Shown here: positions 19,416 through 64,000 of the stretch, in pieces
Layout of the letters: each line of letters starts with the position of its first letter
Position numbering within the stretch: the first letter of the stretch is position 1
From: Escherichia phage vB_Eco_QOTSP
Reading direction: 5' to 3' (one strand)
Sequence record: OY720014
Length of the DNA stretch: 64,000 nucleotides
Position numbers and translations under genes: made by a program
The notes under the pieces: model-generated
What the model was told of the DNA's origin: nothing
Seen by the model: the letters and a program-made list of their open reading frames with translations, nothing else
Databases searched by the model: none

Positions 19416-19461
19416 ATTTATGACTCGTCGTGAGACGCTCAGTTCTTTATTAGGGACTGAT

Positions 19462-20070
19462 ATGCATTTTTATCTTTATAAAATAACAAATAAAATTAAT
19501 AATAAAATTTATATTGGTGTGCATTCTACCGAAAATTTAGATGATGGATATATGGGTTCTGGTAAATTATTAAAAAGAGCCCAAGATAAATATGGTATAG
19601 AAAATTTTTCTAAAGAAATATTAGAGTATTTTGACGATAAAGAATCTATGCTTGAAGCCGAGAAAAATATTGTCACAGAAGAGTTTTTAAATAGACCAGA
19701 TGTGTATAATTTAAAACTTGGAGGTGAAGGTGGATGGGATCATATAAATAATTATCCTATGACAGATCAGCAACGCGAATTAATTTCATTGGGTGTTAAA
19801 AAGGCGCATTCTAACGGAAAATTAAAAGGATGGTCTTCAAATGGATTAATGAAGAATGGCTTTGCTGGTAAAACTCATTCTCAAGAAGCTAAACGTAAAA
19901 TAGCAAAAGCAAACGAAGCAAAAGTTTCTGCGGATGAAAGAAAAAGAAGAATAGAAATTTCTAAATTATATGATTTTTCTAAACGTGGCGAATTGTCTAA
20001 ATATGCTAAGCATATTGGCGTAAGTCATACTCAAGCAAAAAGAATTCTAAATCAAATTAACAATATATAA
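19462..20070 (+). CDS. GIY-YIG homing endonuclease (SegB-like), inside the tRNA cluster
   Basis: ORF track 19420..20070; N-terminal YLYKITNKINNKIYIGVH ... GYMGSG is the GIY-YIG motif; likely start at M15 (19462). Confidence 0.8.
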   Translation: MHFYLYKITNKINNKIYIGVHSTENLDDGYMGSGKLLKRAQDKYGIENFSKEILEYFDDKESMLEAEKNIVTEEFLNRPDVYNLKLGGEGGWDHINNYPMTDQQRELISLGVKKAHSNGKLKGWSSNGLMKNGFAGKTHSQEAKRKIAKANEAKVSADERKRRIEISKLYDFSKRGELSKYAKHIGVSHTQAKRILNQINNI

Positions 20071-20076
20071 ATATTT

Positions 20077-20787: not shown

Positions 20788-21138
20788 ATGAAAGGTAATG
20801 TTTATTTAGTAGTTCATGATTTAACATTTTACTTCAATGAATATGAAAAACATATCTCATTTCGTGAAATTAATTTACTTTATCAACATGCGGATTATAT
20901 TTATATTCAAAACGAATTTGGTCATTGGCAATTTCTCAAAAATCGTTCATTTGGCTTAGATGGTTACGAATACTTTGAACGTAAAGACCTTTTAGATAAA
21001 ATTCCGTTATCTACGCAATATCAAAATCACAAATCTTTATATAAATGCCGTCCAATTCGAAATGTTGAATCCGCGTATGAAGCAATTGATTTATGGCGTG
21101 AACGCCGTAAACAGATTGATGCTTTAAAAGAATATTAA
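20788..21138 (+). CDS. hypothetical protein
   Basis: 116-aa ORF with GAGGAA ribosome-binding site just after the tRNA cluster. Confidence 0.6.
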   Translation: MKGNVYLVVHDLTFYFNEYEKHISFREINLLYQHADYIYIQNEFGHWQFLKNRSFGLDGYEYFERKDLLDKIPLSTQYQNHKSLYKCRPIRNVESAYEAIDLWRERRKQIDALKEY

Positions 21139-21444
21139 GAAACCGGGTCGCTACCGGTAAGTCGTCGGACTGATGTTCCCTGAGTAAGGAATTGCGTTAA
21201 TAATCTTTGCGTTTATTGATGCCCTCTTACATCACAGCAGAAACGGCGCACCGAATTATCGATTCGAGGAAATATCTTTGCCGTAAGCCGAGTAGCGTTT
21301 TTGACGGAACGTTCGGATATGGTCGAGATATGGCCTTTTAAAAATATTGAGTAGCGTCAACTGCTTAATAACCGGGTTCGAATCCCGGCGTTTCGTACAA
21401 ACACTTGCCTTAGCAGGTGGAACCCCGACAAGGTTGCCGCAAGG

Positions 21445-21480
21445 CTTAGCCCCGACCGAAAGGTTGGGGCTTTTTGGTAT
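21445..21480 (+). repeat. 36-bp terminator-containing direct repeat, copy 1
   Basis: cttagccccgaccgaaaggttggggctttttggtat; one mismatch to 22004..22039. Confidence 0.85.
21449..21475 (+). terminator. rho-independent terminator (GAAA-loop hairpin plus U-tract)
   Basis: gccccgacc-gaaa-ggttggggc followed by ttttt; part of 36-bp repeat 21445..21480. Confidence 0.75.
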
Positions 21481-21525
21481 AAATATAGTAGTATATTAAA
21501 TCCACGAATTAAAACAGGAAATAAG

Positions 21526-21999
21526 ATGAAATCATATACTCAATTTTTAAATGAAGCGGTGTTAAATGAAGCATCTAGCACCGAAATTCAAGCTGTCGCA
21601 AAAGCAGCCATTGCAGCGGGTAAATATTCCTATAAAGATGCTTCTGATGAATCGCGATTCCAGTTCGCACGCGACATGAAAGCGGAAGGATTTACGGGAA
21701 ATGCAGTTAGTATGGCCTGGAAAAGTTTAGTTGCTACTGGAGCTGCTTTTGCAAAGGCTTCAGGTAAACCTGCTCCTAAGGCTGACCCTAAAGCAGCACA
21801 AGAAAAAAATATTGCTAAAGGAATTATCTCTAGGTATGAAGCAATTCTTAAAGAACTTTTGATAATTAAGACCGAAGGCCAGAAACTTGCGCGAGCTCAT
21901 AGTTTCAAAGATAATCCACATGCTCATGACCTAGAGTATGTTGAAGACATCCAAAAAATTATTAAAGATCGCATTTGGTCTGCTAAACAAATCAAATAA
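21526..21999 (+). CDS. hypothetical protein with capsid-targeting-like N-terminus (MKSYTQFLNEA)
   Basis: 157-aa Ala/Lys-rich ORF; N-terminus resembles the internal-protein targeting signal; flanked by the 36-bp terminator repeats. Confidence 0.55.
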   Translation: MKSYTQFLNEAVLNEASSTEIQAVAKAAIAAGKYSYKDASDESRFQFARDMKAEGFTGNAVSMAWKSLVATGAAFAKASGKPAPKADPKAAQEKNIAKGIISRYEAILKELLIIKTEGQKLARAHSFKDNPHAHDLEYVEDIQKIIKDRIWSAKQIK

Positions 22000-61977: not shown

Positions 61978-61982
61978 AGCAA

Positions 61983-61998
61983 AGGGGCTTCGGCCCCT
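61983..61998 (+). terminator. GC-rich UUCG-loop hairpin
   Basis: aggggcttcggcccct upstream of gene 43. Confidence 0.5.
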
Positions 61999-62057
61999 TA
62001 TTTGGAGTATAATATATCAAGAGCCTAATAACTCGGGCTATAAACTAAGGAATATCT

Positions 62058-64000
62058 ATGAAAGAATTTTATATCTCTATCGAAACAGTTGGAAATAACA
62101 TTGTTGAACGTTATATTGATGAAAACGGAAAGGAACGTACTCGTGAAGTAGAATATCTTCCAACTATGTTTAGGCATTGTAAGGAAGAGTCAAAATACAA
62201 AGACATCTATGGTAAAAACTGTGCTCCTCAAAAATTTCCATCAATGAAAGATGCACGAGACTGGATGAAGCGAATGGAAGACATCGGTCTCGAAGCTCTC
62301 GGTATGAACGATTTTAAACTCGCTTATATCAGTGATACATATGGTTCAGAAATTGTTTATGACCGAAAATTTGTTCGTGTAGCTAACTGTGACATTGAGG
62401 TTACTGGTGATAAATTTCCTGACCCAATGAAAGCAGAATATGAAATTGATGCTATCACTCATTACGATTCAATTGACGATCGTTTTTACGTCTTTGATTT
62501 GTTGAATTCAATGTACGGTTCAGTATCAAAATGGGATGCAAAGTTAGCTGCTAAGCTCGACTGTGAAGGTGGTGATGAAGTTCCTCAAGAAATTCTTGAC
62601 CGAGTAATTTATATGCCATTCGATAATGAGCGTGATATGCTCATGGAATATATCAATCTCTGGGAACAGAAACGACCTGCTATTTTTACTGGTTGGAATA
62701 TTGAGGGATTTGACGTTCCGTATATCATGAATCGCGTTAAAATGGTTCTCGGTGAACGCAGTATGAAACGTTTCTCTCCAATCGGTCGAGTAAAATCTAA
62801 ACTTATCCAAAATATGTACGGTAGCAAAGAAATTTATTCTATTGATGGCGTATCTATTCTTGATTATTTAGATTTGTATAAGAAATTCGCATTTACTAAT
62901 TTGCCGTCATTCTCTTTGGAATCAGTTGCTCAGCATGAAACCAAAAAAGGTAAATTACCGTATGATGGTCCTATTAATAAACTTCGTGAGACTAATCATC
63001 AACGATACATTAGTTATAACATCATTGACGTAGAATCAGTTCAAGCAATTGATAAAATTCGCGGGTTTATCGATCTAGTTTTAAGTATGTCTTATTACGC
63101 TAAAATGCCTTTTTCCGGTGTAATGAGTCCTATTAAAACTTGGGATGCTATTATTTTTAACTCATTGAAAGGTGAACATAAGGTTATTCCTCAGCAAGGT
63201 TCACACGTTAAACAGAGTTTTCCGGGTGCATTTGTGTTTGAACCTAAACCAATTGCTCGTCGATATATTATGAGTTTTGACTTGACGTCTCTGTATCCGA
63301 GCATTATTCGTCAGGTTAACATTAGTCCTGAGACTATTCGTGGTCAGTTTAAAGTTCATCCAATTCATGAATATATCGCAGGAACAGCTCCTAAACCGAG
63401 TGATGAATATTCTTGTTCTCCGAATGGATGGATGTATGATAAGCATCAAGAAGGTATCATTCCAAAGGAAATCGCTAAAGTATTTTTCCAGCGTAAAGAT
63501 TGGAAAAAGAAAATGTTCGCTGAAGAAATGAATGCCGAAGCTATTAAAAAGATTATTATGAAAGGCGCAGGGTCTTGTTCAACTAAACCTGAAGTTGAAC
63601 GATATGTTAAGTTCAGTGATGATTTCTTAAATGAACTATCGAATTATACTGAATCTGTTCTCAATAGTCTGATTGAAGAATGTGAAAAAGCAGCTACACT
63701 TGCTAACACAAATCAGCTAAACCGTAAAATTCTCATTAACAGTCTTTATGGTGCTCTTGGTAATATTCATTTCCGTTACTATGATTTGCGAAATGCTACT
63801 GCTATCACAATTTTCGGCCAAGTTGGTATTCAGTGGATTGCTCGTAAAATTAATGAATATCTGAATAAAGTATGCGGAACTAATGGCGAAGATTTCATTG
63901 CAGCAGGTGATACTGATTCGGTATATGTTTGTGTAGATAAAGTTATTGAAAAAGTTGGTCTTGACCGATTCAAAGAGCAGAACGATTTAGTTGAATTTAT
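62058..64000 (+). CDS. 43: DNA polymerase gp43, N-terminal ~648 aa (gene runs past window end)
   Basis: Open frame from ATG 62058 to window end (not in ORF track, no stop); exonuclease motifs and polymerase motif A DLTSLYPSII recognised as T4 gp43. Confidence 0.95.
   Translation, partial: MKEFYISIETVGNNIVERYIDENGKERTREVEYLPTMFRHCKEESKYKDIYGKNCAPQKFPSMKDARDWMKRMEDIGLEALGMNDFKLAYISDTYGSEIVYDRKFVRVANCDIEVTGDKFPDPMKAEYEIDAITHYDSIDDRFYVFDLLNSMYGSVSKWDAKLAAKLDCEGGDEVPQEILDRVIYMPFDNERDMLMEYINLWEQKRPAIFTGWNIEGFDVPYIMNRVKMVLGERSMKRFSPIGRVKSKLIQNMYGSKEIYSIDGVSILDYLDLYKKFAFTNLPSFSLESVAQHETKKGKLPYDGPINKLRETNHQRYISYNIIDVESVQAIDKIRGFIDLVLSMSYYAKMPFSGVMSPIKTWDAIIFNSLKGEHKVIPQQGSHVKQSFPGAFVFEPKPIARRYIMSFDLTSLYPSIIRQVNISPETIRGQFKVHPIHEYIAGTAPKPSDEYSCSPNGWMYDKHQEGIIPKEIAKVFFQRKDWKKKMFAEEMNAEAIKKIIMKGAGSCSTKPEVERYVKFSDDFLNELSNYTESVLNSLIEECEKAATLANTNQLNRKILINSLYGALGNIHFRYYDLRNATAITIFGQVGIQWIARKINEYLNKVCGTNGEDFIAAGDTDSVYVCVDKVIEKVGLDRFKEQNDLVEF

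Follow-up and report, generated by a model that had tools for sequence, protein, structure and literature searches.

We analyzed a GC-rich interval, positions 21139-21525, in a 64,000-nucleotide (nt) stretch of the genome of Escherichia phage vB_Eco_QOTSP (hereafter, the window; all positions refer to it, and the features described lie on its plus strand). Judging from sequence identity and shared architecture, this interval very probably holds the phage's own copies of two small RNAs of phage T4, rnaD (species 2 RNA) and rnaC (species 1 RNA). It is exactly the gap between two open reading frames (ORFs) at a threshold of at least 60 amino acids (aa). Its GC content is 45.2% against 35.0% for the window, in agreement with an earlier sequence-only reading, and comparable to that of the transfer RNA (tRNA) blocks (45-49%). 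Only 0.75% of 387-nt segments are equally GC-rich, and the remaining ones fall in the tRNA cluster. The same reading had taken the interval for the longest stretch with no ORF in any frame. The absence of ORFs holds at 60 aa or more; the gap at 61978-62543 is longer, however (566 nt), and three ORFs with TTG starts, of 44, 34, and 50 aa, overlap the interval. Nor is it a single element, as had been assumed: it comprises two RNAs, a 3' trailer, a terminator, and the presumed promoter of the next gene.

The window comes from a T4-type phage of the genus Tequatrovirus. Segment 21100-21560 is 100% identical to the corresponding sequence of Escherichia phages slur02, slur04, Sa45lw, teqhal, and JY01, and as a query it matches about 800 records of T4-like phages. 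The region aligns to rnaD and rnaC of T4, their 3' trailer, and the terminator at ∼98% identity, and the base-for-base alignment is nearly complete, beginning at AGAAACCGGG and covering both RNAs as well as the trailer and the terminator. The T4 reference record describes rnaD as a "small, stable RNA; species 2 RNA" of 119 nt and rnaC as "species 1 RNA" of 139 nt, directly downstream of tRNA-Arg. In the window, the rnaD homologue occupies 21138-21252 (115 aligned nt, otherwise identical to NC_000866 71053-71171, with one 1-nt gap). It is followed by a 6-nt spacer at 21253-21258, GAATTA (AAATTA in T4), delimited by alignment to the T4 annotation, and by the rnaC homologue at 21259-21397, a 139-nt cloverleaf-like RNA with 137 of 139 positions identical to NC_000866 70908-71046. 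The covariance model of rnaC, R1, assigns 172.7 bits to the window copy and 173.1 bits to that of T4. The order of the two RNAs, the spacer, the trailer hairpin, the terminator, and the site downstream of the tRNA cluster are all as in T4, with one difference: the T4 rnaD starts 1 nt after the CCA of tRNA-Arg, whereas in the window a 116-aa ORF lies between them. The T4 species 1 and species 2 RNAs have been known since the 1970s; the GC-rich gap is therefore not a novel element, its objects having already been described in T4. Among the options left by the sequence-only reading, the stable RNA is the one that is borne out.

Labels for these RNAs are rare in the databases. Among the loci fetched and the matches listed, rnaC is labelled only in a few records (T4, Kha5h, GiZh, and RB6), and rnaD only in that of T4; the Kha5h record annotates rnaC and a terminator at the equivalent site. 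Rfam contains no model for either RNA, and interval 21139-21525 stayed below the gathering threshold for all 4227 models; with E-values up to 10, the best sub-threshold matches in 20900-21700 had E of at least 0.55. Coding sequences (CDSs) of hypothetical proteins are often annotated across rnaC or rnaD on either strand, e.g., at 1217-1354 of the fetched locus L016, and on the minus strand at 1532-1660 of L003 and 1127-1234 of L018. These annotations, together with the three short TTG-start ORFs, are the grounds on which the interval could be considered to carry short protein-coding genes. However, records disagree on the strand and frame of the annotated CDSs, the substitutions follow the pairing of RNA helices (see below) and not a reading frame, and the T4 annotation and Northern data define RNAs. 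Hence, the coding explanation is extremely improbable.

The high GC content, ten points above the phage average, had also suggested a remnant of foreign bacterial DNA. Contrary to this suggestion, a blastn search of 5,426 complete E. coli genomes came back empty, a specific gapped pattern was unmatched in 185,579 GTDB species representatives (bacterial and archaeal, one genome each), and the sequence is present in the same ∼800 phage records. Moreover, the GC content is similar to that of the neighboring tRNA genes, as expected of structured RNA. The element is phage-borne, and a bacterial origin can be practically dismissed.

To characterize rnaC, we ran blastn first from the window and then from increasingly divergent members to gather homologues, and added contigs from IMG/VR and metagenomes; the covariance model was built from 16 sequences. 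With this model, full-length rnaC was found in 27 loci, one copy in each, scoring 89-174 bits. The loci represent Tequatrovirus, Kanagawavirus, Karamvirus, Gelderlandvirus, Moonvirus, Winklervirus, Mosugukvirus, Marfavirus, and unclassified Straboviridae, so that the family extends beyond Tequatrovirus. Blastn from the most divergent members (PM2 and MHG19) added no new genera. Pattern scans of IMG/VR and metagenomes yielded T4-type or Marfavirus-type copies only, most other matches being chance ones that the covariance model rejected.

The consensus fold of rnaC is a four-way junction of a terminal stem, a 3-base-pair (bp) helix with a long arm, a linker, a hairpin, and a T-arm. The same cloverleaf is obtained from the single window sequence, with the minimum free energy of -50.2 kcal/mol (z = -4.5). 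The 5' strand of the terminal, acceptor-like stem, CGAUUCG at 21260-21266, pairs with CGUUUCG at 21389-21395, leaving two central U.U mismatches, which in phage PM2 are replaced by U-A pairs. The 3-bp helix (21267-21269/21334-21336) anchors the long arm, which stands in the place of a D-arm, covers ∼64 nt (21270-21333), and has compensatory changes in 16 of the 18 pairs of its helices 4-6. The arm is followed by a single-stranded A-rich linker, UUUAAAAA, at 21337-21344; its core AAAAAU is invariant in the 16-sequence alignment and has two exceptions in the 27-sequence one. In the place of the anticodon arm there is a hairpin at 21345-21370, whose stem has 9-10 bp, with compensatory changes at 7 of 9 pairs, and whose loop has 6 nt. 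The T-arm CCGGG-UUCGAAU-CCCGG lies at 21372-21388, exactly where the sequence-only reading had placed it, and belongs to rnaC. The middle pair of its stem varies among homologues (UA in 12, GC in 11, AU in 2, and UG in 1), and the loop is UUCGAAU in most members, with UGCAUGC or UGCAUCC in three lineages (CIP9, LC53, and Virsaitis27). The RNA ends with the tail UA, the 3' strand and tail together spanning 21389-21397; the genome continues with CAA, and CCA is not encoded here. Most members, including the window, have U-ACAA after the stem; in Marfavirus (CGUUCCG-U-CCA) and PM2 (CGAAUCU-U-CCA) it is U-CCA, which by its sequence reads as a genuine tRNA-type end.

Comparison of 26 distinct rnaC sequences strongly supports this fold. 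Standard pairs are formed by 97.0% of alignment cells, and compensatory changes occur at 28 of 41 pairs, in a 27-locus alignment that was fitted to the covariance model and so favours the modelled structure. As a control, we slid the 3' partners by 1-3 columns, which reduced the paired cells to 39-48% and the pairs with compensatory changes to 3-9; none of 500 shuffles matched the observed values. An independent MAFFT/RNAalifold run produced the same fold with 21 covarying pairs.

The sequence-only reading had proposed a different acceptor stem, between CGGAACG (21305-21311) and CGTTTCG (21389-21395), enclosing a tRNA-like element of ∼91 nt. Both strands are present and can pair, but the stem is not maintained in evolution. 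The conserved partner of the 3' strand is 21260-21266, and covariation yields an RNA of 139 nt. For the conserved stem, 100% of cells pair in the 26 homologues, and two positions covary, including the third pair (GC in 18 sequences, AU in 7). For the proposed one, the fraction is 80%, and mismatches disrupt three of the seven pairs in 8 to 17 sequences: the G.U pair at the third position gives way to A opposite C in 17 of the 26 sequences, and two further pairs fail in 8-9. The same U-to-C substitution of the 3' strand is precisely balanced, at the 5' end of rnaC, by an A-to-G change. If the proposed stem is enforced, the energy rises by 13.3 kcal/mol above that of the minimum-free-energy fold. 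CGGAACG itself is located in the long arm, 3' of the center of its tip. The earlier failure to find an anticodon arm is explained by the fact that rnaC has none: the hairpin in its place bears a 6-nt loop whose probable partner is the loop of the long arm.

These observations bear on the possibility, also raised earlier, that the region contains a degenerate tRNA of ∼91 nt (21305-21396), decaying after the loss of its anticodon arm. In its favor are the perfect T-arm, the 7-bp stem that could form, the fact that the 91-nt piece folds alone at -29 kcal/mol, and the best alignment to the Rfam tRNA clan, to tRNA-Sec, although it scores only 16.6 bits (E = 2.6) against the gathering score of 47. 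Nevertheless, neither ARAGORN nor the Rfam tRNA model calls a tRNA in 21139-21525, the required stem is the one broken in many homologues and costly in the full RNA, and the 139-nt structure is under strong constraint, retained by compensatory changes at 28-30 base pairs across about ten genera, which is the opposite of decay. We consider a decaying tRNA highly improbable.

The loops of the two non-T arms deserve separate consideration. Loop L1, UUGACG (21301-21306), at the apex of the long arm, and loop L2, CGUCAA (21355-21360), the 6-nt loop of the second hairpin, are exact reverse complements, and they are the most conserved unpaired segments of rnaC. In Marfavirus, they are UUGGCG and CGCCAA, and in Yersinia phage MHG19, UUAGCG and CGCUAA, again fully complementary in both cases. 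Counting L1/L2 as a helix gives 99.4% paired cells and two covarying positions. This covariation indicates a probable kissing interaction between the loops. Pattern scans of IMG/VR and metagenomes that were independent of the loops recovered more copies of the T4 and Marfavirus types and no further L1/L2 variants. Two fully complementary 6-nt hairpin loops forming six base pairs resemble the TAR/TAR* complex of human immunodeficiency virus 1. The difference is that in rnaC both loops are part of the same molecule, which their pairing would turn into a ring, and that this pairing is deduced from sequence comparison.

Pairing of L1 with the 3' tail, CGU(A)CAA, was also considered and set aside, L2 being perfectly complementary and covarying; it may represent an alternative conformer. 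In T4-type sequences, the 3' stem strand and tail, CGUUUCGU(A)CAA (21389-21400), can pair with UUGACGGAACG (21301-21311), forming 11 bp with one bulge, and the stem of the sequence-only reading is a part of this helix. This helix would be a possible alternative conformer of rnaC; it is disfavored by 13 kcal/mol and is unconserved outside the T4 group.

The genomic context of rnaC links it to tRNAs. It lies in or beside the tRNA gene cluster and on the same strand in the window, as well as in every homologous locus fetched. In phages KaAlpha, Melville, and Pet-CM3-4, it is found between tRNA-Trp and tRNA-Gly, 1-5 nt from the flanking tRNAs, and in LC53, Virsaitis27, and PM2, it is just upstream of tRNA-Trp. 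In addition, the rnaC model aligns weakly, end to end, to genuine tRNAs (24 bits on tRNA-Gln). The spread of the family beyond Tequatrovirus and its occupation of tRNA slots within tRNA arrays speak for a function that is under selection and connected with the biology of tRNA.

One could suppose that the function is purely in cis, the RNAs giving the tRNA operon a structured 3' end that shields the tRNAs upstream of it against 3' exonucleases or organizes their processing and has no role in trans. This is consistent with T4-type genomes, where the tRNA unit ends, on its 3' side, with both RNAs, directly before the trailer hairpin and the terminator. However, in Karamvirus, Gelderlandvirus, Winklervirus, and others, rnaC is flanked by tRNAs upstream and downstream, amid the array; the loops are invariant or covarying, which would be needless in a simple stability element; and both RNAs are known to accumulate in T4 as discrete species. 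An exclusively cis-acting element thus seems unlikely.

The similarity of rnaC to a canonical tRNA consists in a 7-bp terminal stem directly beside a 5-bp T-stem with the 7-nt UUCGAAU loop, in the four-way junction, and in the ability to fill tRNA-sized slots in tRNA arrays. On the other hand, in rnaC a 64-nt arm replaces the D-arm, an anticodon loop of 7 nt is lacking, and the acceptor stem contains two U.U mismatches, with CCA not encoded in the window. The junction linkers in the window are 0/8/1/0 nt, while the textbook tRNA values are 2/1/4-5/0.

Similar to transfer-messenger RNA (tmRNA), rnaC combines an acceptor stem and a T-arm with a large non-tRNA body, and it would share tRNA-like processing, as suggested by its architecture. 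Unlike tmRNA, it lacks the G.U alanine pair, the messenger part, the tag peptide, and the pseudoknot ring of the tmRNA type, and it has a cloverleaf junction where tmRNA has helix 2. Neither ARAGORN nor Rfam detected tmRNA in the region. The alanine identity element G3.U70 was considered in connection with the stem of the sequence-only reading and does not apply, since position 3:70 of the supported stem is A-U here and G-C elsewhere.

By analogy with the tRNA-like domain of tmRNA, rnaC could be a chargeable RNA that is aminoacylated and acts on the ribosome. The 7-bp acceptor stem beside the T-arm and the discriminator U followed by CCA in divergent members (Marfavirus and PM2) would agree with this proposal, while the T4-type members, including the window, encode U-ACA instead, and the acceptor stem contains two U.U mismatches. 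With neither G3.U70, nor an anticodon loop, nor a reading frame for a tag, and with no tmRNA call from ARAGORN, a chargeable RNA of this kind, acting on the ribosome, appears very unlikely.

Another RNA that may be compared with rnaC is YrlA, a bacterial Y-like RNA; it is stable and non-coding, and its tRNA-mimicking module, to which the Ro protein Rsr binds, contains a T-arm. The 5' and 3' ends of YrlA are located in its Ro-binding stem, and a loop caps its acceptor-like helix, whereas in rnaC the ends themselves form the acceptor stem. Rfam searches with E-values up to 10 yielded no YrlA-type match in the region, and E. coli is not known to have Rsr.

The second RNA, rnaD, has a structure of its own. 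It starts with a covarying 5' hairpin, ACCGG-GUCGCUA-CCGGU (21142-21158). A closing helix, GUCGUCG/CGGCG(C)AC, is invariant around a variable apical hairpin, and the internal-loop motifs UCCCUG and AUCACAGC are invariant as well. Of the 33 pairs in the RNAalifold prediction, 9 show compensatory changes. The covariance model of rnaD, R2, assigns 129 bits to the window copy and 103-142 bits to Tequatrovirus-like and Dhakavirus loci. We also considered a CCA end on rnaD and rejected it, since T4 has GCACCA and other members have ACAG, so that the end is not conserved.

Phages of Moonvirus, Marfavirus, and Karamvirus have, within their tRNA regions, weaker but consistent matches to the rnaD model, at 16-24 bits and on the same strand (positions 444-539 of the fetched locus L023, 668-758 of L016, 695-785 of L017, 339-435 of L025, 6808-6905 of L030, and 31-128 of L018). 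They share the motifs AAGUCGUCG, UCCCUG, AUCACAGC, and CGGCGC and a compensating 5' hairpin. To judge from these shared features, the matches are probably divergent rnaD homologues, situated a few hundred nucleotides upstream of rnaC. It is therefore probable that rnaD, too, is widespread and that it does not always adjoin rnaC.

Downstream of rnaC, the 3' trailer (21398-21447) contains a 7-bp hairpin at 21402-21419 and is conserved in T4. The motif CCCCGAC...AAGGUUG occurs twice in 21425-21470; its second copy is the stem of the terminator, and the first one is without the closing GGGG. The intrinsic terminator, at 21448-21476, consists of a 10-bp hairpin (21448-21471) with 7 GC pairs and a GAAA loop, followed by UUUUU; it is the strong terminator that the sequence-only reading had seen at the end of its element, and it is annotated in related GenBank records. 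The fold of 21396-21482 has the energy of -37.4 kcal/mol (z = -3.9). Immediately after the terminator, at 21478-21485, there is a match to the T4 late-promoter consensus pattern, TATAAATA, upstream of the ORF at 21526-21999. This promoter presumably belongs to that ORF and not to the RNAs. The last 50 nt of the interval, assigned to this next gene, include the late-promoter consensus and the ribosome-binding site of the ORF.

Upstream, ARAGORN run on the whole window found ten tRNA genes on the plus strand, between 19176 and 20769. The tRNAs of the window do not include tRNA-Pro; Met, Tyr, Asn, and His tRNAs are present here and absent from T4. A 216-aa ORF within the array (19420-20070, plus strand) has GIY-YIG, SegE-like, and NUMOD3 matches and is a homing endonuclease gene; it lies between tRNA-Gly and tRNA-Ser, where T4 and Kha5h have tRNA-Pro. 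Another copy of TATAAATA is present at 20066-20073 (plus strand), just upstream of tRNA-Ser. It might drive late transcription of the second tRNA block, the 116-aa ORF, and both RNAs up to the terminator. The frequency of TATAAATA over the window does not exceed chance, with 15 copies found and 10.5 expected, and only the positions are suggestive. The 116-aa ORF (20788-21138, plus strand; phrog_3355) lies between tRNA-Arg and rnaD, and its TAA stop codon overlaps the first base of the rnaD homology. If rnaD begins here as the homology indicates, its 5' end must be cut from the 3' region of an mRNA. Searches of Pfam and PHROGs gave no functional clue for this ORF or for the one at 21526-21999, the former having no Pfam match.

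In T4 infection, RNAC and RNAD were detected as discrete late RNAs, confirmed by Northern blotting, in a time-resolved transcriptome study, where they are referred to as "RNAs of yet unknown functions" (PMC9697503, 2022). Their function in T4 is also given as unknown elsewhere (PMC3014915), and our searches of the available literature revealed no recent functional assignment for the species 1 and species 2 RNAs. In an evolution experiment with a T4-like phage, published in 2025 (PMC12685909), every line adapted to one semi-permissive E. coli host carried a single convergent single-nucleotide polymorphism, located in rnaD, an observation suggestive of a role of rnaD that depends on the host.

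These data allow us to outline a possible life cycle of the two RNAs. They would be transcribed together with the tRNAs, the terminator closing the tRNA-cluster unit. The module of the acceptor stem and the T-arm could then cause rnaC to be excised by the host ribonuclease P (RNase P) and the enzymes trimming tRNA 3' ends, as happens with tRNAs. Support for such excision comes, indirectly, from the location of rnaC in tRNA slots, its weak alignment to tRNAs, and its clean absence from one phage described below. On these grounds of sequence and context, we regard rnaC as probably a tRNA mimic that is released by tRNA-processing enzymes. The 6-nt loops of the long arm and of the hairpin probably kiss, producing a compact ring, and this fold could confer resistance to nucleases, hence the "stable" RNA. 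In trans, rnaC may occupy or decoy a host protein that recognizes the acceptor stem and T-arm of tRNA, such as a processing enzyme or an enzyme of a tRNA-directed defence; with low confidence in the decoy role itself, we favor this course, from processing like a tRNA to action on such a protein, over the other mechanisms. The RNA encoded by rnaD would be a separate conserved hairpin-type RNA with its own partner. Taken together, rnaC would be a ring-closed tRNA mimic conserved across enterobacterial T4-like phages, the geometry of its acceptor/T-arm minihelix being fixed by six kissing base pairs, and would serve as a decoy or inhibitor in trans, with rnaD as a second RNA that has a host-specific role. 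We put this complete scheme forward tentatively and consider it rather doubtful as a whole.

Several observations weigh against it. In Escherichia phage MX01 (locus L004, about 1500-1700), rnaD is directly joined to the trailer hairpin and the terminator at the junction ...GCGCACCGAA|CACTTGCC, so that rnaC is cleanly absent. Further, T4 deletions of the tRNA region are viable. Given these two facts, rnaC is modular and is dispensable on laboratory hosts. A tRNA-elbow interaction cannot be essential, because the canonical T-loop has been replaced in the lineages of CIP9, LC53, and Virsaitis27. The loop covariation comes from two independent lineages only, and Pectobacterium phage PM2 retains 4 of the 6 L1/L2 pairs. 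The detection of discrete RNAs pertains to T4, those of the window being known from sequence. We infer both processing by RNase P and kissing from architecture and covariation. Finally, the idea of rnaC as a decoy for a tRNA-recognizing host protein is a guess, to which we would assign a low probability.

Still, the region is best labelled rnaD/rnaC, a textbook feature of T4-type phages. Most deposited genomes of T4-like phages leave these RNAs unannotated or overlay them with spurious CDSs, and the two covariance models could be used to mend the annotation. If the proposed role of rnaC is true, the versions that encode CCA, in Marfavirus and PM2, might be substrates of enzymes acting on the tRNA acceptor. 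The cloverleaf, the loop pairing, the CCA variants, and the spread over about ten genera are leads that do not in themselves settle the function. At the same time, the cloverleaf, the loop-loop pairing, and the CCA-bearing variants suggest concrete mutants with which the question of what these RNAs do in T4-type phages, now about 50 years old, could be addressed.

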